A stretch of 64,000 bases of DNA from a virus. Taxonomy: Duplodnaviria; Heunggongvirae; Uroviricota; Caudoviricetes. The notes beneath the pieces were generated by a model, which saw only the letters and a program-made list of their open reading frames with translations, made no database searches and had not been told where the DNA came from. The stretch is taken from IMG/VR virus record IMGVR_UViG_2654587772_000002; one strand, written 5' to 3'. Below, in pieces: positions 40,703 to 64,000 of this stretch. The translations under genes and the position numbers were made by a program. Position 1 is the first letter of the stretch; every line of letters starts with the position of its first letter.

Positions 40703-40705
40703 CAG

Positions 40706-46162: not shown

Positions 46163-46312
46163 TTCTTGCTCCTCAATCCATTAAAATCTCAGCAATAGTA
46201 GTTGTTACGTCCGCCACTGGCTCAGAGCTGACTATCCGCTAAATTTAGCTCAGTGCCGTAGCTGTGTCAGAACAAACCTAAGCCGAAACCGTTTATTACA
46301 AAACAATAAATA

Positions 46313-46741: not shown

Positions 46742-46769
46742 TTTTCCTCACATATGTCATATAGTAAAG

Positions 46770-46800
46770 GATTATATATACCGTTGTTTTGGACGCTCAA
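46770..46800 (-). promoter_or_regulatory. Candidate sigma70 promoter for the TolA-like lipoprotein gene (approximate position)
   Basis: On the coding strand: TTGAGC, a 16-18 bp spacer, TATAAT, then a GAGGA RBS about 35 nt before the ATG. Confidence 0.4.
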
Positions 46801-47329: not shown

Positions 47330-47358
47330 CCCAAAAAGAACCGCCTAAACAGGCGGTT
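47330..47358 (-). terminator. Hairpin followed by a T-run on the minus strand; candidate intrinsic terminator
   Basis: AACCGCCT-AAAC-AGGCGGTT stem-loop. On the minus strand it is followed by CTTTTTGGG. Confidence 0.4.
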
Positions 47359-47682
47359 GGTCAATACAAAGGATGCTTCGTCTTTATTATAGTAATCTGA
47401 GGCGTCGAGTGTCTTGTATCAGACAACATATTGTCCCGCTAAACAGCGAATTACAAACCACCCTGCAATGATCTCTCATCTCATTTTATATGAGTTGACG
47501 ACATCAGGATAACGCATCATCAGCCCCTGCCAAGAAATATCAAAACTCCCGCCAGCAATGTGTTATCACAATATTGTAAAAAAAACACAGCACCGAAACT
47601 ATAACTGGTCTCTGTTATAATTTGGAGCAGAAAGACCAGTTGCCCAACTAGCAGCATTCTCCCCTGCTTTCCTGACGTAAAA

Positions 47683-47706
47683 AAACCGCATTGAGCGGTT
47701 TTTTTA
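47683..47706 (-). terminator. Bidirectional intrinsic terminator-like hairpin about 80 nt downstream of the Q-like gene (tR'-like position)
   Basis: AAAAAACCGC-ATTGA-GCGGTTTTTTT: a GC stem flanked by an A-tract and a T-tract. Confidence 0.5.
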
Positions 47707-47785
47707 CGATGTCCATGTCTGCAATCCGCCTCGCGATACAGCTTTACGAAGCATAGCAAAATTGAAGCAGTTTATACGTAAGAAA

Positions 47786-48328
47786 TCAAGCCATTTTCTC
47801 AGCAAATGATTCACGCATGGGAATATATAGGGCATACTCAGCAACAGCTAACCAATTAGCAATCCGTTTTTCGCATGTGCTAAAACACCACTCTGGGTGT
47901 GCATCATTTAGCAATTCAGCCATTTTGCGCTTAGTCATCCCCCGCCCTTCATAGCGTTGCCGGAGAATGCAAATCAATCCTGGATGCTCTGCCAGCACCT
48001 CACTTATGACTCGATCAATACATAACGCCTCTGCATCAGTACAATGCGCCAGCCAGCTCTTTTGCTTGCCGTTGATCATCTCTCGCAAAAACGCTTCCAG
48101 CTCAGCTTTCTCTATTCCCGCTTTTTTCATTCTGCGCAGGGCTTCATTAATGGCTGTTTTCGTCAGTTTTTTGGATGCCAACAACTGATTGAACATATTC
48201 CCTGACCTGCCACCGCCAATATACGACCAGCGCCCCCACATACGTAGTTTTCCCTGAATCCAGACACTTTCCAGCGTGGTGAGGCGAAGGTGTTCTCCGC
48301 TTTTTCCTGTATTCGTTGGGTAAATCAT
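47786..48328 (-). CDS. Putative late-gene antiterminator (Q-like), 180 aa
   Basis: Position: last gene before the terminator-like hairpins and the lysis cassette. No motif verified. Confidence 0.45.
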   Translation of the reverse strand: MIYPTNTGKSGEHLRLTTLESVWIQGKLRMWGRWSYIGGGRSGNMFNQLLASKKLTKTAINEALRRMKKAGIEKAELEAFLREMINGKQKSWLAHCTDAEALCIDRVISEVLAEHPGLICILRQRYEGRGMTKRKMAELLNDAHPEWCFSTCEKRIANWLAVAEYALYIPMRESFAEKMA

Positions 48329-48615
48329 AAATGACCTTTCTTTCTCCAGATTTCTTGTGTGCGAAAAACCCCTTCAGCATGCATCAGGCGCAATTCTTCT
48401 TTGGTGTAATCGCTGGTTTTTACCCGCCCGTCGATTAGATCGTGGCATGAGCTACAGGCTATCGCCGCCTGCATATCGTGTGGTTTTGTCGCTGTTCCGC
48501 ACGTCCCCGCCAGCCTGTAATGCGCCAGCACAGAGGTTTCGGGATTGTGATTGCAGTAGCCAGGGATTCTGATCTGGCATATCTGGCCTTTAGCCGCTTT
48601 ACGTAAATTCACCAT
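48325..48615 (-). CDS. YbcO-like (DUF1364) Cys-rich protein, 96 aa
   Basis: Cys cluster C..C...C...C..C (CQIRIPGYC, SSCHDLIDG). Size and nin-region position match DLP12 YbcO as recalled. Confidence 0.6.
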   Translation of the reverse strand: MVNLRKAAKGQICQIRIPGYCNHNPETSVLAHYRLAGTCGTATKPHDMQAAIACSSCHDLIDGRVKTSDYTKEELRLMHAEGVFRTQEIWRKKGHL

Positions 48616-49214
48616 TACGCAAACTCCAGTAGTTGTGCGGCCACATTTTCAACTTCCTCCTGAGAGGAGAATTTACGGAACAGAATCCAGTTCCACAGCA
48701 CATTCAGTACAGATTTATAAACCTGCTGAAACTCGACTTCGTCCATATTCGCAAAAGCGATGGATTTTGCCCGACGCCCACGGCTACCGTCCGGATAAAT
48801 ATGCTCGGTGTAAAATCCGGCCTGAATGGTTACCCACTCGCGGAAAGCCTCAAACGACTTTAGCAACGCCGTATCCCGGGTTCTACGAGTCGCAACGGTG
48901 TTAAGGTATTGCTCTGCGGCATCACTCAGGGCTGGCGTGTGTTCCCGACCAACTGATTCGCACAGGTAATCAACGAAACCAGACAGCAGTTCTCGTTCGC
49001 GAGGCGTGATCGCCCCACCGACCGGAGTCCAGTAATCGAATCCCAGTTGCAGGAGTTTGAAAAAACGCTTGTGGAATGCGTAGTTACGCACACGCTTAAA
49101 ATCTGCGTGTATCCACTCACCTATTTTGATTTGATGCAGAAAATCGCAACTCTCCGGCGTCGCCGGGAGAAGTAAACCAGAAGAAGTTTGTTTGACCAGT
49201 TGTATATGCGCCAT
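48615..49214 (-). CDS. nin-region hypothetical protein (DUF1367-like), 199 aa
   Basis: ORF track. Abuts the YbcO-like gene. Family name from memory. Confidence 0.55.
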   Translation of the reverse strand: MAHIQLVKQTSSGLLLPATPESCDFLHQIKIGEWIHADFKRVRNYAFHKRFFKLLQLGFDYWTPVGGAITPRERELLSGFVDYLCESVGREHTPALSDAAEQYLNTVATRRTRDTALLKSFEAFREWVTIQAGFYTEHIYPDGSRGRRAKSIAFANMDEVEFQQVYKSVLNVLWNWILFRKFSSQEEVENVAAQLLEFA

Positions 49215-49632
49215 TTCTCAATCTCTCGATGGCGCAGTGCAGCAGATGCCAGTTGTTCAAGCTAGCACGCAAATTGTAAACCAGAATGCCAGGAAAAAAC
49301 AAAACCCGCCGAAGCTGGTTGTGTGCGGTTGCGTTGAAGTCTCCTAGCCAAAGAGTAGCGGTGACCACTCCCCGCCGATAATCTTAGTTGTTTAATTTCG
49401 TAAGCTAACTAGGCTAAAAGCTCTCTGTTGTCTGCCTGTTGTACAATTAACAAAATGAACAACGAACTAGATATACCAACGCCAGAATGGTGCAACAAAT
49501 CCCAAACAACACAGCAATGCAACAATAACATATGTTATTTTCCTCTCACGGGATTCAGTCCTGAATTCTCATAAAGCTAATCTTTTTTTAAAAACATACT
49601 GTTAGATCACATGCACTTTCTTTCTTAACATC

Positions 49633-49660
49633 GTTGACTTCGCATGCGAAGCGTTTAAAA
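49633..49660 (+). promoter_or_regulatory. Candidate sigma70 promoter with a 14-bp perfect palindrome in the spacer, upstream of the GHKL ATPase gene (approximate position)
   Basis: TTGACT, 16 bp, TAAAAT. The spacer contains CTTCGCATGCGAAG. Lies about 55-80 nt upstream of the ATG at 49714. Confidence 0.45.
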
Positions 49661-49713
49661 TCAACAATTTGCACTTAAGGTATTTATTTTCCCAAACACA
49701 TAGAGAGTAAATT

Positions 49714-51105
49714 ATGACTGAGAACACGACTCCAACAGCAGACTTTAGTCCTAGTAAAAGATTTTTTGTGAGTATGCTAACTCGAGATATCGACTTAAAC
49801 GATGCCATACTTGATCTGCTTGATAACTGCGTCGATGGGGCTTTACGTACAATAAAAGACACAAAAAAAACTTCAAAACCATATGAAGGATTTTATGCGA
49901 AACTTACGATTAATAAAGATGTCTTTATTATAGAAGACAATTGCGGAGGTATCCCTAAAAGCTTCCGAGAATATGCTTTTAAAATGGGACGACCCCATCA
50001 AAAAGAAGAAGAAAATGAAGGCACCGTTGGCGTCTATGGTATTGGTATGAAAAGAGCCATTTTTAAAATGGGTAGAGATTGCTCAATACAATCGAATAAT
50101 CCCGATGGCGCATTCACTGTAGATATAACACCTGATTGGATCGATGGTGATGGTTGGAAAATACCGATGCACGAGAGTGACTATGATAACAAAAATCCAA
50201 CAGGCACAACTATAGAGATAAAAAAACTCCATTCTAATGTGGCACAAAAATTTAATGAGAGCACATATCTTACTGATCTCTTTTTACAGATAAAACACTC
50301 ATTGTCATTTATTATTCAAAAAGGATTTAAAATAGAATTAAATGGAGTTGTTGTTGAACATAATCCGATTAACATCATAACTGATCATTCTAAAATAGAA
50401 CCATACATATATAAAGCTAAAATAGACGATGTTGATATCGATTTAGTTGTTGGCTTCTATAAAAATTTAGAAGATGACAATGATGATGTTTTAGAAAAAA
50501 GGAGTTCTGATGATGCTGGATGGACTGTCATTTGCAATGACCGCGTTGTTCTATATTGTGATAAGACACATCTCACAGGTTGGGGCTTTGCTAATGTACC
50601 AAGGTTTCATACCCAATTTATAGCAATTTCTGGGGTTGTTCGCTTTACCAGTAAAAACCCAGAAAAATTACCAATAACAACAACGAAACGAGGTGTCGAT
50701 CTTAGTTCTACATTGTACAATGATGTACGAAATAAAATGATTGAAGGGATGATGCATTTTATTCGATTCACCAATCAGTGGAAAGGTGAGCATCTTGAAG
50801 AAGGGAAAAAATTACTTAAGTCAGCTCAGTCACATGAAGCTCAATCTTTATTTGAAATTACCCCACAATCAACTCCAGAAGATAAAAAAAATAACTGGTC
50901 CAACCCTAATAGAAACAAAAATGAGTGGCGATATACACCTAAGCTGCCTACCCCAGTAAAAAAAAGCTCTACTGTACGAATAATCTTCACCAGAGAGAAA
51001 GAAGATGTTAAAATTTTATCTAAATATTTCTTTGGACATGAAGATGCTAGCGCTTCTGATGTGGGGATGCAATGCTTTGATACGGTGATTGAAGAGGTGA
51101 AGTGA
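49714..51105 (+). CDS. GHKL-family (histidine kinase / MutL / MORC-like) ATPase, 463 aa
   Basis: Bergerat-fold motifs in order: N-box LDLLDNCVDGA, G1-box IIEDNCGGIP, G2-box GTVGVYGIGMKRAIF. AT-rich. No histidine-kinase dimerisation domain and no receiver domain recognised. Confidence 0.9.
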   Translation: MTENTTPTADFSPSKRFFVSMLTRDIDLNDAILDLLDNCVDGALRTIKDTKKTSKPYEGFYAKLTINKDVFIIEDNCGGIPKSFREYAFKMGRPHQKEEENEGTVGVYGIGMKRAIFKMGRDCSIQSNNPDGAFTVDITPDWIDGDGWKIPMHESDYDNKNPTGTTIEIKKLHSNVAQKFNESTYLTDLFLQIKHSLSFIIQKGFKIELNGVVVEHNPINIITDHSKIEPYIYKAKIDDVDIDLVVGFYKNLEDDNDDVLEKRSSDDAGWTVICNDRVVLYCDKTHLTGWGFANVPRFHTQFIAISGVVRFTSKNPEKLPITTTKRGVDLSSTLYNDVRNKMIEGMMHFIRFTNQWKGEHLEEGKKLLKSAQSHEAQSLFEITPQSTPEDKKNNWSNPNRNKNEWRYTPKLPTPVKKSSTVRIIFTREKEDVKILSKYFFGHEDASASDVGMQCFDTVIEEVK

Positions 51106-52094
51106 TGTCTGGACAATACATTCCCTATCACTTAAGGCATAATAAGTCTATTGATAGAGAGATTTTTCTCGAAAGCCTAAACCTCTTAAGCAAAAGACTA
51201 AATATTCAAGAATATACATATATAGGTTTTGGTGGTCCGATGCTTGAAGATTTTAGAATCATGCATAATCGTATCGCTCTTTCTGATATGATTTCTCTCG
51301 AAGAACAAGAGTCTACTCACATCAGACAAAAATATAATTTGCCTTATAATTGTATTGATTGTAAGCTAATATCAGCTCATGACTTTATTCTTGATTATAG
51401 TTTTTCTAAACCATCAATAACATGGTTAGACTATGCCTCCCCGAAAAAAATACAAACGGATCTAGATGATATACACTTACTAAGTACTAAAGTAAGCTCT
51501 TTTGATATTTTGAAGGTCACCTTCCCCATAAATCCTAGTTCTTATTACCAACGTAGAGTTGGAGAAAGTTTAGATATTTTTAAAGAAGCTTTTATTAATT
51601 CATTAAAATCATTGCTTGGGAAAAAGTATCTTGATTTTAATCTTCAGATATCAAATGCAGATCTTTCAGATCGTAAGATTAAAGCTCTTTTAATACGAAT
51701 TATTACAAACGCTTTTAGATCAGCAATAGAACGTGGTCTTTCAGGACGTAAGGATAAGATTCAGTATTACCCATTATCTTTAAATCAATATAATGATGGC
51801 AGTCATACCATGTTGACAATATCAGGTTTTTTCTCCTCAGAACAAGAATATATAGAGTTATCTAAGGCATGCGACCTTTCTAACTGGCAATTTTATTCAA
51901 CAAATTGGGAAGACGTGCAAGAAATAGCAATACCAACACTAACAATTAAAGAAAAGATAAATTTAGATAGTAAACTGCCTGATAAAGAAGCATATCAGGC
52001 AGCCGCTGAAGAGTTCTCTTTAAACGAAAATGAACGGGATAACTATTATAAATACTATAGGTTATACCCTAACTTCCAAAGAATTATGGTTTAA
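51105..52094 (+). CDS. Unknown protein (329 aa), translationally coupled to the GHKL ATPase
   Basis: Start overlaps the upstream stop (TGATG). No recognisable catalytic motif. Its 3' end overlaps the 3' end of the convergent methyltransferase by about 33 nt. Confidence 0.85.
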   Translation: MSGQYIPYHLRHNKSIDREIFLESLNLLSKRLNIQEYTYIGFGGPMLEDFRIMHNRIALSDMISLEEQESTHIRQKYNLPYNCIDCKLISAHDFILDYSFSKPSITWLDYASPKKIQTDLDDIHLLSTKVSSFDILKVTFPINPSSYYQRRVGESLDIFKEAFINSLKSLLGKKYLDFNLQISNADLSDRKIKALLIRIITNAFRSAIERGLSGRKDKIQYYPLSLNQYNDGSHTMLTISGFFSSEQEYIELSKACDLSNWQFYSTNWEDVQEIAIPTLTIKEKINLDSKLPDKEAYQAAAEEFSLNENERDNYYKYYRLYPNFQRIMV

Positions 52095-53213
52095 ATATTC
52101 GGGCTGTACTCTTTTATTTAATAAATTGTACAGCCCCTTTAATATATATTCAGCAACTATTGGTGACACGCTATTTCCTATTTGTCTGAAACTATGCCAT
52201 TTAGTTACATGAAAGCGAAACCAATCAGGGAAGCCTTGTAATCTAGCAGCTTCTCTTGGTGTAATCACTCTTGGATGATAAGGGTGGATCGGCCTGACGG
52301 CTTGAAAGCTTCCTTTATCTCTAGCGGTTCCCGCCCTTAAAGTCGGGCAAAAACCATTTGGATCTAATCTTGTAGATCTTGAAATTTTATCAGTTTCCCC
52401 AAAAGATAAGGAAGCATAACGCTCTTGGACGATTTTGCTATGTAATGTTCCGGTACATCCAGATATGATATTATTTTTTAACTTAGCGATCGATTCTGTA
52501 TCACCAACATTCCGAGGGATCTGCCCCCATAATTTTTCATAAAATCCCCCTTTTCGATCTTTTTTAATTGTTCGCCAACTCTCAGAGTCTGATTGCCAAT
52601 TGGCATCGATAATATCTGGTAATCCATACAAAGCATCTTTTACAGTAACCGGATCAATCATTTTAGGCATAAATACTTCATCTGAAATATCAAGCTTCAA
52701 TGATTTTTTTACACCGATAAAAAAATATCTAGTTCGAATAGTTGGAGCACCATAATCAGATGCTTTTACCTTGATGGGATCAAGAATATCATAATCACCG
52801 CTAACCAAATTAAATGCTTTATTTCTAATGCCAGAATATTTCTCTTGCATAATACCTGGAACATTTTCTGCCAAAAAGAATAATGGCTGTAATTCTGATA
52901 CTAAACGGTAGAAATGCATGTAAAGCTGATTCCTGCTATCATCAGGATTCCCCTTGCCTATTGAACTAAATCCTTGGCACGGAGGACCGCCAATAATACC
53001 ATCTATGGGCATATCGTTTTTAAAAAAACCCTTAATTATTTCTGCATTTAGTAAAGAAACATCTTCTTGGACGTGCAAACTTCTTGGAAAATTAATTGCG
53101 TGAGTATTAATAGCATGTTGATCAATTTCAACTGCCATTTTAACATCAAATCCAGCACGTGCAGCACCAAGACTTAGACCTCCAACGCCAGAAAACAAAT
53201 CTATTACATTCAT
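52062..53213 (-). CDS. DNA (cytosine-5)-methyltransferase, 383 aa
   Basis: Motif I DLFSGVGG, motif IV GGPPCQGFS, motif VI ENV, motif VIII Q.R.R-like. AT-rich. Confidence 0.95.
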   Translation of the reverse strand: MNVIDLFSGVGGLSLGAARAGFDVKMAVEIDQHAINTHAINFPRSLHVQEDVSLLNAEIIKGFFKNDMPIDGIIGGPPCQGFSSIGKGNPDDSRNQLYMHFYRLVSELQPLFFLAENVPGIMQEKYSGIRNKAFNLVSGDYDILDPIKVKASDYGAPTIRTRYFFIGVKKSLKLDISDEVFMPKMIDPVTVKDALYGLPDIIDANWQSDSESWRTIKKDRKGGFYEKLWGQIPRNVGDTESIAKLKNNIISGCTGTLHSKIVQERYASLSFGETDKISRSTRLDPNGFCPTLRAGTARDKGSFQAVRPIHPYHPRVITPREAARLQGFPDWFRFHVTKWHSFRQIGNSVSPIVAEYILKGLYNLLNKRVQPEYLNHNSLEVRV

Positions 53214-53475
53214 ATAGTTGCAACGTCTCTTATTAGTTTCTATGTATTATAACACAACTGTTCTTGATGTTTTAACCCCATAAGATAACCTCATAAAGGC
53301 TATCCCTTGAAAATACCGGATCGCATAAATTTAATCTTTCAAAACTACTTGTCTATTAATCGAGCAATTTAAGGTTTTTTTAGTCATGTCGATACCGACA
53401 TAGTTAACTAAACCCATTTCATCGTCCAACAAATGGGGGTAATACACTTTGATTTATAGTCGGGTGGGTTTTTCT

Positions 53476-53511
53476 CTATCTGCCTTTGGTGTTCATGCCC
53501 AAGGCAGATAG
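53476..53511. repeat. Inverted repeat (11-bp stem, 14-nt loop) upstream of the methyltransferase gene (approximate position)
   Basis: CTATCTGCCTT...AAGGCAGATAG. No flanking T-run on either strand. Confidence 0.5.
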
Positions 53512-53644
53512 CCTCAAGCACCCGCAGCAATTCTACTTAACTATCCTTTTCCCGCAAATCGTTTTTATCCCCAGCGGCAAATCGAATACACAACCAGCGC
53601 CACCGCCATCGCAATTCCTACCGTTGTGAATGCTTCAGTCCAGG

Positions 53645-53902
53645 TCATCGTGAAACATCCTCCACGCTTATAAGTCCGCTTCGCTCCAGGTAGTCCATCA
53701 CTTTATCCGGCAATTTGCAGCCCGGTTTCGCTTTCTTCAGTTGACTAACCAATTGTTTAACCAGCATTGTCAATTCGCGAACTTGTTTCCCGGGCTCCCC
53801 TTTGCCCTGAAGCAGGGCAGCGCGGCAAGCGTTCCATCCCTCAGCATATGTTTCAGTTACACCATCGAGATGGCATGTAAGCAAATCCATTTCTTCCGGC
53901 AC
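53645..53902 (-). CDS. Hypothetical protein (85 aa)
   Basis: ORF track only. Confidence 0.45.
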   Translation of the reverse strand: MPEEMDLLTCHLDGVTETYAEGWNACRAALLQGKGEPGKQVRELTMLVKQLVSQLKKAKPGCKLPDKVMDYLERSGLISVEDVSR

Positions 53903-54308
53903 TACTGGCGCTGGAAAAACGGCATAGGGTGGCGTCCATTTTGGCGCTTTATCTCCAGCCGAACGCTGCTACCAGTCATCCGGTTTGTATTCATAAAAAT
54001 CACCAACTGGCTCTGCTTCCAGCGATGCCAGAGCAATTTTGAATAATTCGCCCTCTACCCGTGCCATCCCTGAATTGGGGTGGCATTTCTCAATCGCTAT
54101 TTTTAATTTAGCTTCTTCGATTAATTGCTTTTTGGTTAATTCAGTCATTTTTCATTACCGCCCTTTCGGGCCGCCTCCTAATATTTTGAGGGTGCAGCCC
54201 CCCCTCCGGTTAAGGATTAAATTTTATTTACAGTGCTAAATTTAATTATTCAGATTTGGATTATGATTTCTCTTTCAGTTCACGCAGTTCCCTGATTGTT
54301 AATTTGGC

Positions 54309-54746
54309 TCACAACAGCACATCCTGAAAATTACCCTGATAGAACGCCAGTACACGCTGCATGACTTCGCTCTTCCGGCACTCGCGACAGATTATATTCA
54401 GACGCCTGTCATAGCGGCGTATTTCTCCGTCTGGTAATGACCAGATAAGGTCCGGATCAACTACAGCAGGTTTCTTCACCTTTGCCCTCGATAGTTTTTT
54501 GCGGGCGTTTTGCCAGTCTTTACGCGCCTGTTCAGACGGGAATAACCCGTAACCAGAGTTGTATACATCGCCACTGGCAACCAGCTCACTGGCGAGAACA
54601 CTCATCAGATATCTTGTCGCACCTGTCTTGGCTTCCAGTTGCCGTAACGTCTCGCGACCGCTCAGACGTACAAGTTCAACAACCTGCCCTTTAATTTTTT
54701 CCCGCTCTTCTGGTGTAAATACTTTTGCCATAAGCGCCTCCGGCAA
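54309..54746 (-). CDS. Hypothetical phage protein (145 aa)
   Basis: ORF track. Starts at the stop of the upstream gene. C-terminal CRECRK motif. Confidence 0.55.
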   Translation of the reverse strand: MPEALMAKVFTPEEREKIKGQVVELVRLSGRETLRQLEAKTGATRYLMSVLASELVASGDVYNSGYGLFPSEQARKDWQNARKKLSRAKVKKPAVVDPDLIWSLPDGEIRRYDRRLNIICRECRKSEVMQRVLAFYQGNFQDVLL

Positions 54747-55508
54747 TCACTTTTCCGATGCAACACAGCGAGAAGAATCAGTAATCTGTCGAACAATATC
54801 CCGGTGCTTGTTCAGCTCCCGCAGCGCGGCGCAGACACGCTCCCACTTCTGGACATGATTTTTCGCCCGACGCAGTTCGCGGTTTGCCATATGCAGCGAT
54901 GGCAGAACGAGGTCATCCGCTCGCGTTTCGGTAAACGATGGCAACGACTGCACAATGTCCGCCACAGTTTCTGTTTTAATATCTTCCTGTGTTGCAGCTT
55001 CCTGTCCCGGTAACGCAACACCTGCTGGTTGAGGAAAGGCTTTACCATCAGTTTCCGTTACCGATGCAGCTTTCGGCTCTGCTGGTAAATTATCGCCCGG
55101 CATGCAGTAACGAAATTTACCGTTCTGATTAACGCGAATCAGACGACCTTTACTGATTGCCATTGCCAGCGTTGAAGCCACTTTGCGTGATGTGATGCCG
55201 AAAAACGTAGCCAGTTCATCCGCCGTTTGTGGGCCACGTTGTTCAATCGTCGCAGTTAAATCGCACTCCGAAATTTTTGCGACTGTTGCCGTGGTGGTTT
55301 CTTCCGGCAGTTCTGCCTGCTCTGGCTGTTCCTGCTGAACGTTGTTATCAGCCACGCGCCAGGTGTATACGCTTTTATCAACGAAGCCAGCCTTTTTCAG
55401 TTCCCACAGCTCGTTCAGCACTTCTTCACGACTGATATCAAGTCGCGCAGCCAGTTCTACCGACGTAGCTTTCCCCATTGCTTTCAGTGCGTCAAAAACA
55501 GTCTCCAT
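54747..55508 (-). CDS. Winged-helix protein (DUF1627/YdaW-like)
   Basis: Start set at Met18 by codon arithmetic. N-terminal winged-helix-like segment ([30 protein letters not shown]). Confidence 0.6.
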
Positions 55509-55530
55509 TAAATTTTTCTCCCGGTAAAAA

Positions 55531-56277
55531 CTACTTCGCAATTCCTGGCTGGACGACATTCGGACGCCAGCTCTCCCAGTTAAAATTCACCCATCGCCCG
55601 CCGTTCATGGTCATGCGATCCATAATCCGCTCGCCGAGCAATGTTTTCATGGCCTCATAGTTCAGGTTTGTCAGCATTCCCACGCTACGCATCGACGCTG
55701 TCCGTCGATCAATAATCTGGTGCAGTACCACCTGCTCGTTTTTCGTCTCGCGCTGAATGCCAATTTCATCAAGAACCAGCAGATCCACTTCGCACAGTTC
55801 CCGCAAAAATTTTTCGCCTGACTGCCCGTCGTCATAGCTGGCGTGGAGGGCACTCATAACATCAGCCACGGTAACCACAATCACTGTCTGACCGTCTTTC
55901 AGCAGGCGATTCCCGATAGCTGCCGCTAAGTGATTCTTCCCGGTACCAGGTTTTCCGCTGAACGCAAAATTTGTACACCCGGTCATCAGTTCATCAGCGA
56001 TGGATTTCGCCTGACTCAACGCGTATCGCTGCCCTTCGTTCTGCACCTGGTAATTCGAAAACGAGCATTTGCGGTGCAATGGCTGGATGCCAGAGCGATT
56101 CAGAATTTTTTCCACCCGCAACTGACGATTCTGACGGTTGATCTCCTCACAACGTTTCTGGCCTTCGGAAAGTTGCCACTCGCGCCACTCCGCTACCGTC
56201 TTGAATGGCGCGGTTACATGTGACGGGGCCAGTCTGCGGATACGTTCAAGAACGTCGCCTGTCGCAATATTTTTCAT
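55531..56277 (-). CDS. ydaV: DnaC-like helicase loader (AAA+ ATPase), YdaV-like
   Basis: Walker [16 protein letters not shown]; Walker B LLVLDEIG. 248 aa. Confidence 0.85.
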
Positions 56278-56283
56278 GGTCAG

Positions 56284-57072
56284 TTACCCCCTGAAGCCTG
56301 GCGGGATCGCACTATCCGGTAACGAGACGGTGTTAACCTGTCGGAGTAACGTCTCAGGTCGAACACCTTTCGGCGCGAACAAGCCCTGGTATTCGTTGGC
56401 GATGCTGTGTCGAATCACCTGCTCAGGTGAAAAACCCTGCTGGCGGAATTTTTCCAGCTCCCGTATCGCCCCGTTAGCGCCCTGCTCCGTTCGAATCGGT
56501 TTTCGCAATGCCTGCCTGAACTGAACCCACTCATGCCAGAGTGTTTCCGGCAACCAGTCAGGCAGCTCGATAGCCTCCGGTTCGAATTTTTTAGACGCTC
56601 GTTTTTGGCGAGGGGGATTTAGGGGGAGATAAGTATTTATATCTTCCTCTTTCTCTTCCTCTGGTAACGCTTTTTGATCCGTTTTTGTAACGCTGGCAGC
56701 GTTACCTTTTCGTTTCAGTTCTCGTATTTTTGTTACTCTCTCGTTTGTAACCGCCCGTTTTTTAGAGCTTTTCCCGTTATGGCGCTCAAAGTTAGGAAGC
56801 GACAACACACCATTAGTTTCGACCAGCCATCCAACCTGAATTAACGCATCAGCAAAACCAGCCATAAAAGTGATGCGATCTATTGCACTTTTTGTAACGC
56901 CGCGAGCGTTACACTCTGCGTTACCGTCTATCATTTGTTGATCCGCCCATGCCCAGAAGCGAATGACTTTCCCTAATGCGGCATCTGGATCAATATTCAG
57001 AATCTCAGCAAGCCTGAATATTTCCGGCTTATCCGGCGTAATAACTTCGAGCTTTATCCAGTTTGAAGCCAT
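56284..57072 (-). CDS. Replication initiation protein (YdaU-like; functional analogue of phage O / DnaT-type organiser)
   Basis: Position immediately upstream of the DnaC-like loader. Basic central linker. 262 aa. Confidence 0.65.
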   Translation of the reverse strand: MASNWIKLEVITPDKPEIFRLAEILNIDPDAALGKVIRFWAWADQQMIDGNAECNARGVTKSAIDRITFMAGFADALIQVGWLVETNGVLSLPNFERHNGKSSKKRAVTNERVTKIRELKRKGNAASVTKTDQKALPEEEKEEDINTYLPLNPPRQKRASKKFEPEAIELPDWLPETLWHEWVQFRQALRKPIRTEQGANGAIRELEKFRQQGFSPEQVIRHSIANEYQGLFAPKGVRPETLLRQVNTVSLPDSAIPPGFRG

Positions 57073-57149
57073 TTGTTTTCACCTTGTAACGCTCGCAGCG
57101 TTACATTTAACTGATACCGAACAAAACAGTTCGGTACGATTAATTTCAA

Positions 57150-57572
57150 TCAATGCACTACGACAGAATCGCTAGGAGAACCGCCGCCGCTGAAATGCGC
57201 TTTCCGGTAAACGGCTTGGACTGCATCATCATGCGCATCAATTGCCGTACTTAACGCTTCCTGCGCCGCCAGTAATGCACGGCGTTCCAGGGTATCGAAG
57301 ATGCAGAGTCGGTGACGCAGCTCGCGCGGAAGGATTGCCAGAATTGCTGGGATCAGCTTCTGAATTTTTTCCCTTTGCGCATTCGTTTCACCTTTCAACC
57401 AACGGTGATAGATATTCTGCTGATTGTTCCAGTCCTTGCCTGGAACCAGGGGCAATTCGCCGCCCCCCTGGCGCAGATATTCTTCAGTAATTGCATTGGC
57501 TACCCATGCCTGCCTTTTTTCGGCTGCCAGGGCAAACAACACCGATTCGATGTGCTCATGCTTGATTTTCAT
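57150..57572 (-). CDS. ydaT: YdaT-like regulatory protein (CII-position gene), 140 aa
   Basis: Position second in the rightward early operon after the Cro-like gene. Size equals Rac YdaT as recalled. Confidence 0.6.
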   Translation of the reverse strand: MKIKHEHIESVLFALAAEKRQAWVANAITEEYLRQGGGELPLVPGKDWNNQQNIYHRWLKGETNAQREKIQKLIPAILAILPRELRHRLCIFDTLERRALLAAQEALSTAIDAHDDAVQAVYRKAHFSGGGSPSDSVVVH

Positions 57573-57594
57573 GAATCATTTGCCTCTTGATGTT

Positions 57595-57891
57595 TCAGGT
57601 ATGATCAAATGAGGATTTGTTACTGTCATTTAGTTGCTTCACTGACATATTCTGCGAACAACATGCCGAACGTCGTAAATATGACCAGTCAATATCAGGA
57701 CGAAGTTCTTCGCACAGCACCTCACCTCTTGTTGCACGTTCAATTGCTGGACATCTCTCGGCAGGCAATTGACGTACCCCTTTGATCCATTGATTTACGC
57801 TTGGAGGTGATACACCTAAAAGCCTAGCCATTGCTGTTTGCCCACCGACAACAGCACAAGCTTGCTTGAATGAATAGTTCTCTTTTTTCAT
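57595..57891 (-). CDS. ydaS: Cro-like HTH regulator (YdaS-like), 98 aa
   Basis: HTH QTAMARLLGVSPPSVNQWIKG. Divergent from the repressor gene across an operator-rich 123-bp intergenic region. Confidence 0.75.
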   Translation of the reverse strand: MKKENYSFKQACAVVGGQTAMARLLGVSPPSVNQWIKGVRQLPAERCPAIERATRGEVLCEELRPDIDWSYLRRSACCSQNMSVKQLNDSNKSSFDHT

Positions 57892-57917
57892 CGAATGAAC
57901 TCCAAAAACACACAGAG

Positions 57918-57987
57918 ATATTAGGCGACGCCTAATACAAATGTCAATAGGCTATGCCTAATACAATGAGAGTAGGGATTGCCTAAT
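57918..57987. promoter_or_regulatory. OR-like operator array: three 17-bp sites of the form ATTAGGC-N3-GCCTAAT spaced about 25 bp apart, overlapping a divergent TTGACA/TAATAT promoter (approximate positions)
   Basis: ATTAGGCgacGCCTAAT (perfect), AATAGGCtatGCCTAAT, AGTAGGGattGCCTAAT. On the minus strand TTGACA-18-TAATAT faces the Cro-like gene. Confidence 0.6.
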
Positions 57988-58014
57988 GCAATGAGCATAG
58001 GAGAATATTAAGCA

Positions 58015-58491
58015 ATGCTTAGTGGTAAAGACTTAGGCCGAGCGATAGAGCAGGCCATTAACAAAAAAATCGCATCGGGATCCGTCAAATCAAAGGCGGA
58101 GGTCGCACGCCACTTCAAAGTCCAACCACCATCAATCTATGACTGGATTAAGAAAGGCTCCATAAGTAAAGATAAACTTCCAGAATTATGGCGTTTCTTT
58201 GCTGATGTTGTTGGTCCAGAGCATTGGGGGCTTAACGAATACCCCATACCAACCCCCACCAATCCAGATACAAAAAGTGAACTTTTAGATATAAACAACC
58301 TTTATCAAGCAGCCTCTGATGAAATAAGAGCGATTGTAGCTTTCCTGTTATCTGGAAATGCTACAGAACCAGATTGGGTTGACCACGATGTTCGCGCCTA
58401 CATAGCAGCGATGGAAATGAAAGTGGGTAAGTATCTGAAAGCTCTAGAATCTGAACGGAAAAGCCAGAACATCACAAAAACTGGAACTTAA
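58015..58491 (+). CDS. racR: Prophage repressor (RacR-like, cI-position), 158 aa
   Basis: N-terminal HTH (KSKAEVARHFKVQPPSIYDWIKKG). Divergent from the Cro-like gene. Size equals Rac RacR as recalled. Confidence 0.75.
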   Translation: MLSGKDLGRAIEQAINKKIASGSVKSKAEVARHFKVQPPSIYDWIKKGSISKDKLPELWRFFADVVGPEHWGLNEYPIPTPTNPDTKSELLDINNLYQAASDEIRAIVAFLLSGNATEPDWVDHDVRAYIAAMEMKVGKYLKALESERKSQNITKTGT

Positions 58492-58564
58492 ACTTATATG
58501 GTCTGACGGAAAACTCCTGGATTCCGTTATTTAACCCCCCCATCACTTTCTCCAGTCGCCATCA

Positions 58565-58631
58565 CCTATTAGGTTACGCTTAAAACATTAGGCATAGCCT
58601 ATTGACAATCAATTAGGCATTACCTATAGTT
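58565..58631 (+). promoter_or_regulatory. OL-like operator half-sites overlapping a near-consensus plus-strand promoter (TTGACA-17-TATAGT) downstream of the repressor gene (approximate positions)
   Basis: ATTAGGCatAGCCTATT and AATTAGGCATT elements share the ATTAGGC half-site seen in the OR-like array. TTGACAatcaattaggcattaccTATAGT. Confidence 0.5.
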
Positions 58632-58799
58632 CCAGCATACCACCCACCCCGCCCCACAGAACGCCAGGCAATACTTCGAGTTACCAGGTAGTGGTCAGGG
58701 GTTAAGTAGCCAGCCCGAGGCGTATGAACATGACGGCGGGATTCAAATTTTGCAGTGCAGCAGTTAGTTCCGCCACCCGGCGTTAAGGGGATAGATAAG

Positions 58800-58934
58800 A
58801 TGGTGCATTACGAAGTAGTTCAGTATTTGATGGATTGTTGCGGTATCACTTACAACCAGGCTGTGCAGGCTTTACGCAGCAACGACTGGGATCTCTGGCA
58901 GGCAGAAGTCGCTATACGTAGCAACAAGATGTGA
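58800..58934 (+). CDS. Small protein, 44 aa (YdaG-sized)
   Basis: My own translation (MVHYEVVQYLMDCCGITYNQAVQALRSNDWDLWQAEVAIRSNKM); RBS AAGGGG. Below the ORF-track size cutoff. Confidence 0.45.
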   Translation: MVHYEVVQYLMDCCGITYNQAVQALRSNDWDLWQAEVAIRSNKM

Positions 58935-58944
58935 GATTCGCAAA

Positions 58945-59100
58945 ATGCAAAAAATCGACCTCGGCAACAACGAATCCCTGGTGTGCGGCGTGTTCCCCAA
59001 CCAGGATGGAACGTTCACTGCCATGACGTATACCAAAAGCAAAACATTTAAAACCGAAACTGGTGCGCGCCGATGGTTGGAGAAGCACACAGTAAGCTAA
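58945..59100 (+). CDS. Small protein, 51 aa (YdaF-sized)
   Basis: My own translation (MQKIDLGNNESLVCGVFPNQDGTFTAMTYTKSKTFKTETGARRWLEKHTVS). Below the ORF-track size cutoff. Confidence 0.45.
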   Translation: MQKIDLGNNESLVCGVFPNQDGTFTAMTYTKSKTFKTETGARRWLEKHTVS

Positions 59101-59585
59101 CGATTAAAACGTCTACTCCTGCTGTTCCAGAATAACTTCATAAAATGGGAGTATTTTTCGGTGACGAGATAATAAGAACAGTTTGCGCTATCACTCTGAT
59201 GTTGAATGATGCCCTTCCGTTCTAATTTTTTCATAACCGGGTTACGGCAAGGAGAAGTGATAATAAGATTTCCTGTTTTAAGGAAATCTTTAAATACAGC
59301 GATTTCTTTCTCAGATAAACGAAGCAATACTCGTTGCTCTGGTAGTAATGAATAATGCTTTTGAATATGTGCTCGCAATCTTGAGAAGGAAATGGCGACC
59401 ACGAAAGAAAAGGCAAAAACGATAATCTGAAAGAGCCAAGGTATTTCAGTATAAGCATTGAATGCGACAGTAAACTCTTTCGGTATCAGCCAGAGAGTGA
59501 GACCAAAAATGATAATCGTATACATAAGTCTTTCGAGTGGCTCGTTAGCAAAAAGTTTCAACAATGGAGTAAATACATCCAACAT
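59097..59585 (-). CDS. sieB: Two-TM membrane protein, SieB-like superinfection exclusion protein (162 aa from the internal Met)
   Basis: Start set at Met42 by codon arithmetic. TM segments YTIIIFGLTLWLI and WLFQIIVFAFSFVVAISF. Opposite orientation to its neighbours, as sieB is in Rac. Size matches. Confidence 0.55.
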   Translation of the reverse strand: MLDVFTPLLKLFANEPLERLMYTIIIFGLTLWLIPKEFTVAFNAYTEIPWLFQIIVFAFSFVVAISFSRLRAHIQKHYSLLPEQRVLLRLSEKEIAVFKDFLKTGNLIITSPCRNPVMKKLERKGIIQHQSDSANCSYYLVTEKYSHFMKLFWNSRSRRFNR

Positions 59586-60026
59586 ATCAATAACTCTCAA
59601 CTGTAAGGGTATTGAAATGTTAACACAAGCTCTCGCTGTAGGGGTATAGCCGAGACCACCGAAGCCCGGAGGTGGTGAAATAAAACCGGGCACAACACGA
59701 AGGCGCATTTCCGATATCCATAAAGAGTCGGTCTTGTCTGTTAAATTTAAATGGTGGGAGTGCGCCTCCGGTTGTAAATAACGACATTGCTGTGTGTAGT
59801 CCTGGCGGCATCAGTTTTTTTCTTGAAGTTCGGCTGATGTCCGCCCTTTTTAAAGTGAATTTTGTGATGCGGTGAATGCGGCTAAGCGCACGTGGCACAG
59901 TTAAAAGTCATGTTTGTCCTTATTGGTTTGGGTGGGAAAGCCGACTGTAATTGTTAACTGGTTGCAGTCACCTGGAGGCACCAGGCACCGCATCAACAAA
60001 GTTCATTTGTAAAAATGGAGATAATT

Positions 60027-60248
60027 ATGATTGCACATCACTTCGGAACTGATGAAATACCACGTCAGTGTGTGACTCCTGGCGATTATGTTCTTCATGA
60101 AGGCCGGACATATATTGCCTCGGCAAACAATATTAAAAAGCGAAAACTATATATTCGTAACCTGACCACAAAAACATGCATTACTGACCGCATGATTAAA
60201 GTCTTCCTCGGTCGTGATGGTTTACCTGTAAAGGCGGAGTCATGGTGA
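60027..60248 (+). CDS. kilR: KilR-like protein (73 aa)
   Basis: Start set at Met5 by codon arithmetic. Size and position equal Rac KilR as recalled. Confidence 0.55.
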
Positions 60249-60418
60249 TGACTAAGAAAATAAAATGTGCTTACCACCTTTGCAAAAAAGACGTTGAAGA
60301 AAGCAAAGCTATTGAAAGAATGCTTCACTTCATGCACGGGATTTTATCAAAAGACGAACCGAGAAAATATTGCAGTGAAGCTTGTGCCGAAAAAGACCAG
60401 ATGGCACATGAACTTTAA
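60248..60418 (+). CDS. ydaE: Small Cys-rich protein, 56 aa (YdaE-like)
   Basis: My own translation; start overlaps the upstream stop (TGATGA). Cys pattern C....C and C...C. Confidence 0.5.
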   Translation: MTKKIKCAYHLCKKDVEESKAIERMLHFMHGILSKDEPRKYCSEACAEKDQMAHEL

Positions 60419-60492
60419 TTAATTGACTATTCGAAACTGAATTTATGCCAGAAATGGCAGGTATTCGCTCAACCTTAATTAAGGAGAAAAAC

Positions 60493-60768
60493 ATGATTAC
60501 CAATTATGAAGCCACTGTTGTAACTACCGATGACATTGTTCACGAGGTGAATCTGGAAGGAAAGCGCATTGGCTACGTAATTAAAACAGAAAATAAAGAA
60601 ACCCCATTCACTGTGGTTGATATCGATGGTCCATCAGGCAACGTAAAAACACTTGATGAAGGTGTCAAAAAAATGTGCCTGGTGCATATCGGAAAGAATC
60701 TGCCCACAGAAAAAAAAGCCGAATTTCTGGCAACTCTAATTGCAATGAAATTAAAAGGTGAAATCTGA
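60493..60768 (+). CDS. racC: RacC-like protein (91 aa)
   Basis: Start set at Met17, which is preceded by a strong RBS (AAGGAG). Size and position equal Rac RacC as recalled. Confidence 0.6.
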   Translation: MITNYEATVVTTDDIVHEVNLEGKRIGYVIKTENKETPFTVVDIDGPSGNVKTLDEGVKKMCLVHIGKNLPTEKKAEFLATLIAMKLKGEI

Positions 60769-60869
60769 AAGAAATAGCCTGCGTATGGCGCAGGCTATGA
60801 ACAGTGTGTATCCGGCAAGATCATTCACTGAACAAAACGAATTTTAATCTGAGTTGAGGTTAAAAAACA

Positions 60870-63800
60870 ATGAGCACAAAACCACTCTTCCTGTTACGGA
60901 AAGCGAAAAAATCATCCGGTGAACCTGACGTCGTCCTGTGGGCAAGCAACGATTTTGAATCGACCTGTGCCACTCTGGACTACCTGATCGTTAAGTCAGG
61001 TAAAAAACTGAGCAGCTATTTTAAAGCTGTTGCCACGAATTTTCCTGTCGTTAATGACCTGCCCGCTGAAGGTGAGATCGATTTTACCTGGAGTGAACGC
61101 TATCAACTCAGCAAAGACTCCATGACATGGGAACTAAAACCGGGAGCAGCACCAGACAACGCTCACTATCAAGGCAATACCAACGTCAACGGCGAAGACA
61201 TGACTGAGATTGAGGAGAATATGCTACTCCCAATTTCTGGCCAGGAACTGCCCATTCGTTGGCTTGCTCAACACGGTAGCGAAAAACCGGTAACGCACGT
61301 TTCACGCGACGGACTCCAGGCATTACACATTGCTCGGGCTGAAGAACTACCGGCTGTTACTGCCCTGGCTGTTTCCCACAAAACCAGCCTGCTCGACCCG
61401 CTGGAAATTCGCGAACTCCACAAACTGGTTCGTGACACTGACAAAGTTTTCCCTAATCCTGGTAATTCAAACCTGGGACTGATAACTGCTTTTTTCGAAG
61501 CATACCTGAACGCTGACTACACCGATCGAGGACTGCTGACAAAAGAGTGGATGAAGGGTAATCGTGTTTCACACATCACTCGCACGGCTTCCGGTGCTAA
61601 TGCTGGCGGCGGAAACCTCACCGATCGCGGCGAAGGTTTCGTACACGATCTGACGTCACTGGCGCGCGACGTAGCCACTGGCGTACTGGCCCGTTCAATG
61701 GATCTGGACATCTATAACCTTCATCCGGCACACGCTAAACGCATTGAGGAAATTATCGCTGAAAATAAACCGCCCTTTTCTGTTTTCCGCGACAAATTCA
61801 TCACCATGCCTGGCGGGCTGGATTATTCCCGCGCCATCGTGGTTGCGTCCGTAAAAGAAGCACCAATTGGGATCGAGGTCATCCCCGCGCACGTCACTGA
61901 ATATCTGAACAAAGTACTGACTGAAACCGATCATGCCAACCCTGATCCGGAAATCGTGGATATTGCCTGCGGTCGCTCCTCTGCCCCGATGCCGCAGCGA
62001 GTAACAGAAGAAGGAAAACAGGATGATGAAGAAAAACCGCAACCATCTGGAACAACGGCAGTTGAACAGGGAGAGGCTGAAACAATGGAACCGGACGCAA
62101 CTGAACATCATCAGGACACGCAGCCGCTGGATGCTCAGTCACAGGTAAATTCTGTTGATGCGAAATATCAGGAACTGCGGGCAGAACTCCATGAAGCCCG
62201 GAAAAACATTCCATCAAAAAATCCTGTCGATGCCGATAAATTGCTTGCTGCATCACGTGGTGAATTTGTTGACGGAATTAGCGACCCAGACGATCCGAAA
62301 TGGGTAAAGGGGATCCAGACTCGCGATTGTGTGTACCAGAACCAGCCAGAAACGGAAAAAACCAGCCCGGATATGAATCAACCTGAGCCAGTAGTGCAAC
62401 AGGAACCGGAAATAGCCTGCAATGCCTGCGGCCAGACTGGCGGGGATAACTGCCCTGACTGTGGTGCGGTGATGGGCGACGCAACATACCAGGAAACATT
62501 CGATGAAGAGAGTCAGGTTGAAGCTAAGGAAAATGATCCGGAGGAAATGGAAGGCGCTGAACATCCGCACAATGAGAATGCTGGCAGCGATCCGCATCGT
62601 GATTGCAGTGATGAAACTGGTGAAGCGTCAGCTCCTGTAGCAACTGAAATCATGTGGCCGTCATATTTCGAGCCTGGCCGCTATGAAAACCTCCCGAACG
62701 AGGTTTATCACTCCGCCAACGGAATAAGCAGCACGATGCTGAAGGATGCCCGTATCAGCCTGATGTATTACCATGGACGGCACATTGCCGGAACTATTCC
62801 GAACGAGGAAAGTGATGCACTGCTGCGTGGGCGGATCATTCACAGCTATGTTCTGGAAACGGATAAATTCGCTGATGAATATGCCATTCCGGTACCGGTT
62901 CCTGAATATGTGGTTACTACTTCTAACGAACTGATCGCCATCATTAAAAAACACAATGCCAGTCTGCCAGCACTGATGACACCAGAGCAGATGAAAGAGT
63001 GGATCGAAAGCTACAACAGCACTCTTATACAGCCACTGTCTGTAAGTGCCGGGGCCGAAGAAACAGGCATCCTTTACGGTTCGCTTCCGGTGGAATTTCG
63101 GCGTATTCCTGAGGGGGAAAAACACACAGCATCAGCAATGAAAGCCTGTATTAAAGAATACAACGCAAGCCTCCCTCCTCTGTTGAAAACCAGTGGAGCA
63201 CGGGAGCAGCTTCTGGATCAAATTGAAACTGTAGCCCCAGAACTAGCAAAAAAAGAACGTGCTAAATCTTTGCCTTACAACATCAGTGGCACAAAAGAGC
63301 AATTAACCGAAATCGCACGGCAAATTCGCCCGGAACTGGTGACTCTGGAGGACTGGCAAAAACGCCAGCAAGAAGAAAACGCCGGGAAAACGTTTATCAG
63401 TCCGGATATGTATGAACAGGCAAAAAATATTCACGCGGCACTACAAAACAATACCGATGCAGCAAGGTTACTCAACCACCCGGATCGCAAATCTGAAATC
63501 AGCTATTTCGGGTTTGATGAAGAAACCGGGCTGGAAATCAGGGTCCGTCCTGATATCGAAATCCGGCTGCCATACGAAAGCATTTGCGCTGACGTGAAGT
63601 CAGTCAGCCTCGGTTATGTGCGACAGGAACGACTTAAAGATCGCCTGCACCGTGAAATTATTGAACGTGATTATCATCTCAGCGCCGCAATGTATTGCGA
63701 TGTGGCAAACCTGGACAAATTTTTCTGGATCTTCGTCAACAAAGATGCTGGCTATCACTGGGTGGCAGTCGTGGAAGCCTCGCAGGAACTCCTGGAACTT

Positions 63801-63941
63801 GGTCGACAGGAATATCGCCGGACGCTACGCCAGATAAACGAAGCCCTGGAGACAAACAACTGGCCAGCACCGATTACCGAAAGTTATACCGACGAATTAA
63901 ACGACTTTGATCTTCGTCGTCTTGAAGCACTGAGCATCTGA
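60870..63941 (+). CDS. recE: RecE-like exodeoxyribonuclease VIII (1023 aa) with a C-terminal PD-(D/E)XK nuclease domain
   Basis: C-terminal domain has RPDIEIR...ADVKS (PD...D-x-K), consistent with RecE/lambda-exo-type nucleases. Long acidic low-complexity linker. Position after the RacC-like gene. Confidence 0.75.
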
Positions 63942-63952
63942 GGAAGGACACA

Positions 63953-64000
63953 ATGAACGAATTAACTCAACAAGAAAATATTAACTCTAATGTTGCGGTT
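63953..64000 (+). CDS. Start of the next gene (partial, runs off the window); RecT-like annealing protein expected by position
   Basis: ATG at 63953 preceded by a GAGGAAGG RBS; MNELTQQENINSNVAV... Only 16 codons are visible. Confidence 0.35.
   Translation, partial: MNELTQQENINSNVAV

Follow-up and report, generated by a model that had tools for sequence, protein, structure and literature searches.

The DNA analysed here, referred to below as the window, is a stretch of 64,000 nucleotides of one strand (IMG/VR virus record IMGVR_UViG_2654587772_000002). The region under study is its right end, positions 55531-64000, which carries two divergent sets of early phage genes. A helicase-loader gene, a replication initiator gene and two regulator genes are located on the minus strand. 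The repressor gene racR is located on the plus strand, followed by a series of small genes and by recE, with sieB read in the opposite direction among them (Table 1). This region almost certainly belongs to a full-length lambdoid prophage Rac, integrated in E. coli ST2747 at its usual site (5' end of ttcA), and represents the immunity, replication and early-left (recombination) part of it. A megablast search of 5,426 complete E. coli genomes gave 100% identity over the whole query to two ST2747 chromosome records. The genes of the region are labelled in these records as ydaV, ydaT, ydaS, racR, ydaF, sieB, kilR, ydaE and recE.

The window was compared with the Rac prophage of K-12 MG1655 (NC_000913.3, 1411899-1434958). 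DNA was aligned by blastn, and K-12 proteins were queried against the window by tblastn. Positions 57152-62639 showed 98.998% DNA identity to K-12 Rac over 5488 nucleotides, and the net gap was zero. Three further blocks aligned at 94.1% (55059-56657), 99.7% (42356-44786, the trkG block) and 99.9% (29036-30795, the ydaY-ynaA block). Ten K-12 early proteins (RacR, YdaS, YdaT, YdaV, YdaG, YdaF, SieB, KilR, YdaE and RacC) were 95.7-100% identical to their counterparts in the window. The same search gave 100% for TrkG, 98.4% for RzoR, 100% for YdaY and 99.7% for YnaA (312 amino acids). The genes ydaG, ydaF, kilR, ydaE, racC and recE, with sieB between them, kept the K-12 order and strands, and the six small genes showed 98.6-100% amino acid identity.

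The initial annotation had proposed a gene-for-gene match to Rac in size, order and orientation. The open reading frames (ORFs) that it named were all present at the sizes and strands given, and the match extended to the sequences themselves, with 95.7-100% protein identity and 99.0% DNA identity over the 5488 nucleotides. Low identity to the Rac proteins, which it had set down as the outcome that would speak against Rac, was not observed. A coincidence of sizes only was ruled out by the same blastn and tblastn identities. It had also placed a TrkG-like and a ParB-like gene after the lysis genes as in Rac. Both were located downstream of the lysis genes, trkG as an unaltered moron and the other as a 263-amino-acid ParB-like protein whose N-terminus corresponds to K-12 YnaK (86 amino acids) at 97.7% identity. 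The identification was accurate.

The ends of the prophage gave a consistent result. Beyond the right edge of the window, the source genome carries, in order, a RecT-family gene, ralR, a DUF1187 gene, xisR, intR and ttcA. The identity to K-12 was 95.3% for ralR, 96.8% for the DUF1187 gene (to RcbA), 100% for xisR and 98.8% for intR. A 43-bp imperfect attachment (att) repeat, unchanged from the K-12 sequence, was present at ttcA and beside uspF in ST2747; the K-12 copies lie at the 5' end of ttcA and in the ttcC remnant. The far end of the prophage (3' end of tfaR, pinR, ynaE, ynaM, uspF) was 99.0% identical to K-12. Thus, the ttcA 5' site with IntR, XisR and an att repeat at both ends was recovered in the source genome outside the window, and the element is therefore Rac itself at its own site and not a mere relative. 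Lambdoid phages share their gene order, many small ORFs are similar in size, and part of the initiator, part of RecE and RecT are truly unlike K-12 (see below), but an unrelated lambdoid phage that resembled Rac by chance only is vanishingly improbable in view of 99.0% DNA identity over 5488 nucleotides, ten proteins at 95.7-100% and an integrase, excisionase, att repeat and flanking host genes that are all as in K-12. We found no evidence that contradicted the identification.

Table 1. Positions of the early genes, regulatory sites and K-12 deletion intervals of the Rac copy in the window (aa, amino acids; a slash marks a junction).
Feature	Position	Strand	Evidence or relation to K-12
Deletion C, ~8.46 kb, missing from K-12	20674-29035 (window part)		K-12 junction ...GGCGGCCA/TTCAGCTATGC...
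Deletion B, 11.56 kb, missing from K-12	30796-42356		K-12 junction ...GAGCAGA/AGCAGCG...
trkG, potassium-transporter moron, after the lysis genes	42747-44204	-	100% aa identity to K-12 TrkG
Deletion A, 10.27 kb, missing from K-12	44786-55059		K-12 junction ...GCATCGGT/ATCTCCGC...
DUF1627 gene, full-length, 270 aa	54747-55559	-	Pfam DUF1627; K-12 ydaW = first 151 codons + Rz-region fusion
ydaV, DnaC/IstB-like helicase-loader ATPase, 248 aa	55531-56277	-	99.6% to K-12; Pfam IstB_IS21 3.9e-20, Bac_DnaA
O-like replication initiator, ydaU position, 262 aa	56284-57072	-	phrog_2509 'replication initiation protein' 4.7e-88
Palindrome TGTAACGC-N5-GCGTTACA, three copies	56686-56706, 56893-56913, 57085-57105		Candidate initiator-binding (origin) sites
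ydaT, CII-equivalent regulator, 140 aa	57150-57572	-	95.7% to K-12; Pfam YdaT_toxin
ydaS, Cro-like regulator, 98 aa	57595-57891	-	99.0% to K-12; Pfam YdaS_toxin 2.9e-31, P22_Cro 3.6e-9
Right-operator (OR)-like region	57918-57987		Three RacR operator inverted repeats TAGGC-n3-GCCTA and a ydaS promoter-like site
racR, CI-type repressor, 158 aa	58015-58491	+	98.7% to K-12 RacR
Left-operator/leftward-promoter (OL/pL)-like region	58587-58630	+	Two sites of the RacR operator consensus and a strong promoter-like site
ydaG, 44 aa	58800-58934	+	100% to K-12; phrog_14709
ydaF, 51 aa, DUF1391	58945-59100	+	100% to K-12
sieB, superinfection exclusion protein B, 162 aa	59097-59585	-	100% to K-12; Pfam SieB 1.5e-31
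kilS small RNA, homologous position, upstream of kilR	59754-59851	+	Gap-free K-12 alignment and K-12 annotation
kilR, cell-division (FtsZ) inhibitor, 73 aa	60027-60248	+	98.6% to K-12; phrog_294 'Kil protein' 1.4e-35
ydaE, Cys-rich zinc-binding protein, 56 aa	60248-60418	+	100% to K-12
racC, 91 aa	60493-60768	+	98.9% to K-12
recE, 1023 aa	60870-63941	+	Pfam Exonuc_VIII 7.6e-98, DUF3799 2.2e-13

The RacR-YdaS-YdaT module of Rac was recovered together with its operators of the form (T/A)TAGGC-n3-GCCTA(T/A). RacR differed from the K-12 protein at two positions only, both of which are S in K-12: residue 63 is A and residue 84 is P in this copy. Pfam gave only a weak HTH_17 match for RacR. YdaS differed from K-12 at one residue. 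The PDB relatives of YdaT were 3c4r and 8bt1, both of which are YdaT-domain proteins. A CII-like role of YdaT has been described (PMC9986795, PMC5917428), and Casjens 2003, as cited in PMC5917428, equated YdaS with Cro and YdaT with CII.

The 123-bp spacer between racR and ydaS (57892-58014) contained three inverted repeats, at approximately 57920-57936, 57948-57962 and 57971-57987. They follow the consensus of the footprinted RacR operators O1-O3 (PMC9638921), and the third was detected only when three mismatches were allowed. The promoter scan gave a promoter-like site for ydaS, TTGACA-18-TAATAT (57947-57918, minus strand), which overlapped the first operator. On the other side of racR, two sites of the same consensus (58587-58601 and 58612-58626) bracketed the hexamers of TTGACA-17-TATAGT (58602-58630). 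This was the best promoter-like site of the region, and it points into ydaG-ydaF-kilR-ydaE-racC-recE. The operator motif gave four matches in the window at two or fewer mismatches, versus 0.07 expected. All of the RacR operator sites lie at homologous positions in K-12, where the downstream pair corresponds to 8631-8670 of the K-12 locus (L003). From its position and sequence, 58587-58630 may act as the left operator and leftward promoter. The spacer itself carried 11 substitutions relative to K-12 (9%), versus approximately 1% in the flanking DNA. These were located mainly beside the operator cores, and the cores were preserved.

By analogy with the characterised K-12 genes, to which those of the ST2747 copy are 96-100% identical, a regulatory scheme may be proposed. 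RacR bound to the OR-like and OL/pL-like repeats would silence the two divergent early operons. Upon derepression, the rightward operon would produce YdaS, YdaT, the O-like initiator and YdaV, and it would continue through the nin-like region to Q and the lysis, head and tail genes. The leftward operon would produce YdaG, YdaF, KilR, YdaE, RacC, RecE and RecT (exonuclease and annealase), RalR, Xis and Int. The sieB gene, read the opposite way, would exclude superinfecting phage.

Two modules of the early region differed from K-12. The first is the replication initiator, whose O-like gene lies between ydaT and ydaV and was absent from the gene list of the initial annotation. It was the sole early gene that was only partly Rac-like by tblastn. 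Its C-terminal 124 amino acids were 80.6% identical to residues 162-285 of K-12 YdaU and to that part only, and its N-terminal 138 amino acids were replaced. Thus, of the YdaU/YdaV pair that marks Rac, YdaV was kept nearly unchanged, and of YdaU only this C-terminal part remained. In K-12, by contrast, YdaU (285 amino acids) has a DUF1376 N-terminal half. The O-like initiator gave no Pfam match, and 56658-57151 gave no DNA match to K-12 by blastn. The palindrome TGTAACGC-N5-GCGTTACA occurred three times in the window, versus zero expected. The three copies are spaced approximately 190-207 bp apart, within the replaced 5' half of the O-like gene and immediately before it. No further copy was found in the window, and none in K-12 Rac even with three mismatches. 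The palindromes are candidate origin or initiator sites, which would belong to the swapped module. The exchange would fit a change of origin specificity in which the loader-interaction part was kept next to ydaV.

The second module is at the end of the leftward genes. RecE residues 1-590 were 99.7% identical to K-12 RecE by windowed identity, with two positions different. Beyond residue 590, the identity fell to approximately 25-30%, about 150 residues were added, and the DNA identity stopped at 62639. K-12 RecE is shorter (866 amino acids), and its nuclease domain is approximately 29% identical to that of the ST2747 copy. The boundary of the swap precedes the crystallised K-12 nuclease domain, which we take to begin at residue 606 (PDB 3h4r), by 16 residues. 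The C-terminal module here matched DUF3799 and PDB 3h4r, the RecE nuclease domain (E = 2.3e-7, a 265-residue chain), and residues 590-1023 are predicted to form a distantly related PD-(D/E)XK nuclease module. RecT of this copy (350 amino acids, RecT family) is encoded beyond the right edge, at 28423-29475 of the source locus (L001), and gave no blastp match to K-12 RecT (269 amino acids). The DNA identity to K-12 resumed just before ralR. Since the RecE C-terminus and RecT were both foreign and the identity returned before ralR, the nuclease domain and the annealase moved as one cassette. The K-12-type nuclease domain and RecT were therefore not present, and both replacements fell within the same Pfam and PDB families; this is a cassette swap within the element and no ground for exclusion from Rac. 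The two cassettes, the N-terminal half of the initiator with its palindromes and the RecE nuclease with RecT, were exchanged relative to K-12 by ordinary lambdoid mosaicism.

The remaining part of the leftward operon was close to K-12. Intergenic substitutions upstream of kilR were found only at 59915 and 59985, outside the segment homologous to kilS. This segment matched no Rfam model, and Rfam and tRNA scans of 55531-64000 gave no RNA family and no tRNA.

The initial annotation had described the early region as embedded in a phage with Q, lysis, head and tail genes, and all of these were found on the same element. Q (DUF1133/antitermQ), holin, lysozyme, Rz and Rz1 are present, as are TerS, TerL, portal, P22-type coat, tail tube, tape measure, M, L, K, I and J. 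Three internal deletions and an IS5 insertion turned this element into K-12 Rac, which lacks 10.27, 11.56 and approximately 8.46 kb of late genes and carries IS5 in lomR. All three junctions were resolved to the base, each with merely 1-2 nucleotides of microhomology. Deletion A removed the 5' end of Rz, lysozyme, holin, two TolA C-terminal-domain ORFs, the small RNA STnc100, Q, ybcO, DUF1367, a cassette of GHKL ATPase, Methyltransf_35 (MT35) and Dcm-type genes, DUF977 and the 3' part of the DUF1627 gene. Deletion B removed the C-terminal part of the ParB-like gene, a TET-associated glycosyltransferase (TAGT) gene, TerS, TerL, portal, minor head, a gene at the scaffold position, coat, four head-tail genes and the tail tube. 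Deletion C joined tape-measure codon 312 to nucleotide 205 of lom, with the loss of the tape measure after codon 312, M, L, K, I, J and the first 204 nucleotides of lom. In the window, only the first 111 nucleotides of lom are left before a junction with P1-like DNA at 20673.

The junctions explain the K-12 ORFs ydaW, rzpR, ynaK, ydaY, ynaA and lomR as fusions or remnants. For example, YdaW residues 1-151 aligned at 55508-55056 and residues 150-186 at 44787-44677 by tblastn, with the Rz part in another frame. Taken with the Rac att site and the late genes, these base-level junctions bore out the suggestion of an undegraded relative of Rac, for which full-length allele of Rac itself is the more exact term. 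Among the 5,426 complete genomes, the K-12-type junctions A and B were found in 338 and 348, and the two halves of a junction were present at >99% identity but apart in well over a thousand others. The deleted state is therefore derived and occurs in a minority only. At least 80% of 30796-55058 was covered in one place in fifteen genomes, and 79% in other genomes, SE11 among them. Full-length late regions like that of the window are common.

The initial annotation had further called this phage apparently intact. The Q, lysis, head and tail genes stood up to this description, and Q, holin, lysozyme, Rz, Rz1, TerS, TerL, portal, coat, tube, tape measure, M, L, K and I were open in the window. 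The following observations weigh against it. The gene for gpJ was split into ORFs of 721 and 462 amino acids by a C4-versus-C5 run at 22234, where five Cs would give a J of 1180 amino acids, and it is intact in NZ_CP007393.1. The lom gene was truncated at 20673, where the P1-like DNA starts. The stf and tfa genes lie outside the window, with approximately 92 kb of P1-like DNA between in the assemblies. In addition, three sequence versions of ST2747 disagreed around the P1-like junction. An intact phage is plausible but unproven.

Positions 1-20673 are P1-like phage-plasmid DNA (DarA, baseplate, tail fibre, holin) with 97-98% identity to plasmids of approximately 94 kb. At 20673/20674, this DNA is joined at codon 37 of Rac lom, and the lom ORF reads over the junction into a truncated P1-like gene. 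No homology that could have caused recombination was found at the junction, and the cut P1-like gene is not Lom-like. In NZ_CP007393.1, a 3.4-kb J-lom segment is present twice (99.9% identity), and its two copies enclose a P1-like genome of approximately 92 kb, past which Rac goes on with lom, stf, tfa, pinR and att. The position or size of the P1-like block differs among the window and the two RefSeq versions. Positions 35531-64000 matched NZ_CP007394.1 exactly, and the left part differed from both RefSeq versions by homopolymer indels as well as large blocks. The window must therefore stem from a further assembly version of the strain. The differences from NZ_CP007393.1 (20973-21137, 22234, 25351, 31003) were nearly all homopolymer-length indels (C4/C5, T9/T10), which open or close frames in J, K and the tail tube. 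The broken genes depended on the version: J in the window, K and the tail tube in NZ_CP007393.1, and the tape measure, L and K in NZ_CP007394.1. Such indels suggest sequencing error, the assemblies being of the 2014 era, and the frameshift calls of the window should be read with caution.

As a separate observation, the P1-like region at 4860-5123 (+) matched group II intron domains D1-D4 (Rfam RF02001, 95.5 bits; RF01998, 46.8 bits). No adjoining long reverse-transcriptase ORF was noticed.

Different readings of the defects were weighed. The prophage has a close to even chance of being full-length but grounded, with tail assembly inactivated by a real P1-like insertion in J-lom, a real J frameshift or both. 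On this view, it would be a cryptic Rac at an early stage and no longer a live phage. All three chromosome versions join the Rac tail genes to P1-like DNA, and the run of the lom ORF across the junction into a truncated P1-like gene is consistent with this. However, the junction varies by version, and the 3.4-kb duplication could stem from scaffolding a plasmid into a repeat. Every point in favour of a functional prophage also counts against a grounded one.

A fully functional prophage (one that can be induced, forms particles and can be transferred), with the defects in the window as sequencing or assembly artefacts, is conceivable but somewhat doubtful. The version differences are nearly all homopolymer indels that break other genes in each version, and the P1-like junction lacks homology and is placed differently in the three versions. 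The block in NZ_CP007393.1 is flanked by the 99.9% identical J-lom duplicate, with a normal prophage beyond it. As for relatives, the copy in MB07011 is uninterrupted and KingRac is inducible. However, a real insertion of a P1-like element would look alike, and decay is common in this family, since even the MB07011 copy, uninterrupted in other respects, contains a stop codon within the tape measure gene. Unlikely in our judgement is the proposal that a P1-like genome of approximately 92 kb really inserted in J-lom of a live full-length Rac, as a chromosomal phage-in-phage with the 3.4-kb duplication. In addition, this Rac is a natural RecE chimera, in which the enigmatic N-terminal 590 residues are combined with a foreign nuclease/RecT pair; this would indicate that they work independently of the nuclease-annealase pairing.

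Further genes were noted outside the early region. A cargo cassette at 49714-53213, between the replication genes and the nin/Q region, encodes a 463-amino-acid GHKL-type ATPase (HATPase_c_3) and a 330-amino-acid PF20553 'Methyltransf_35' protein, convergent with a 383-amino-acid Dcm-type C5 cytosine methyltransferase. The GHKL and MT35 proteins matched only PHROGs of unknown function, and a literature search for PF20553/Methyltransf_35 was without result. PADLOC gave no defence-system match for the GHKL, MT35, SieB and TAGT proteins, and only generic methyltransferase matches for Dcm and the ParB_N domain. In the Rac copies in which 79% of the late region was covered, including SE11, the matched segment has a DUF262 gene in its annotation. 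The site at 49714-53213 looks like a defence-cargo hotspot with an uncharacterised system.

Directly upstream of the terminase genes, 40893-42609 encodes the ParB/Srx-N-domain protein (263 amino acids) followed by the 317-amino-acid TET-associated glycosyltransferase (PF20691, 8.4e-35; phrog_842 'beta-glucosyl-HMC-alpha-glucosyltransferase', 1.2e-103). This pair hints at a DNA-modification function that full-length Rac would carry and K-12 would have lost. The two TolA C-terminal-domain ORFs (131 and 142 amino acids) and STnc100 (86.6 bits) lie at 45767-47038 (-), between Q and the holin gene, in a late-leader moron position.

Full-length Rac is already known. A review reported that the K-12 Rac is incomplete and that of another strain intact, and that 69% of 638 sequenced E. 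coli/Shigella strains carry Rac at this locus (PMC6379469). Full-sized Rac-like prophages were attributed to Jobling 2016, as cited in PMC5917428. KingRac (Frazao et al. 2019, PMC6731689) is a Rac-like lambdoid prophage of 46.8 kb at ttcA; it is inducible by mitomycin C, particle-forming and transferable, and it replaced K-12 Rac in the mouse gut. Since full-sized and inducible Rac prophages were published in 2016 and 2019, the present finding is correct but ordinary. The ON4706xx 'phages', which have the structural module in common with this copy, were considered and rejected as evidence of virion production, since they are prophages reported from sequenced genomes of clinical isolates. The biological gain is small, since Rac is among the best-studied cryptic prophages, and the modest value of the analysis lies in the base-level map of K-12 Rac decay and the two module swaps.

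The organization of the element resembles the cI-cro-cII-O-P arrangement of lambda. The Cro-like, CII-like, initiator and helicase-loader genes run divergently from the repressor gene, the OR-like operator set is tripartite and is accompanied by a second set at the leftward promoter, and the leftward operon includes xis and int as well as genes for a Kil protein and an exonuclease/annealase pair (PMC5917428). In contrast, the proteins are not lambda homologues in sequence, and YdaT belongs to the YdaT family. RecE/RecT stand in place of Exo/Bet and a DnaC-type loader in place of P, and no N-like gene was identified in this Rac copy.

Among full-length Rac prophages, KingRac resembles the ST2747 copy in its full size and ttcA site, a comparison made by description, the ST2747 copy being known from its sequence alone. 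The copy in MB07011 (NZ_CM129881.1, ~2474000-2527600) is an uninterrupted Rac of approximately 53 kb between uspF and ttcA. Its late region was 99.9% identical to 30796-55058 in one piece, with the GHKL/MT35/Dcm cassette included. It differs in having the K-12-type ydaU (285 amino acids), recE (866 amino acids) and recT (269 amino acids), sitABCD cargo by the tail-fibre end and the tape-measure stop, and it has no P1-like DNA. Escherichia phage Rac-SA53 (KU052037.1; Jobling 2016; 52 kb) is likewise a full-sized prophage at ttcA, with intR, xis, ralR, recT, recE, racC, ydaE and kilR on one arm and ydaT, ydaU, ydaV, ydaW, irsA, ybcO and q on the other. However, only 36% of 44000-64000 was matched in it, at 91.7% identity. 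Rac-SA53 has dicA/dicC-type immunity in place of racR/ydaS, its structural genes are unlike those of the ST2747 copy, and its cargo is LT-IIa and a pertussis-like toxin.

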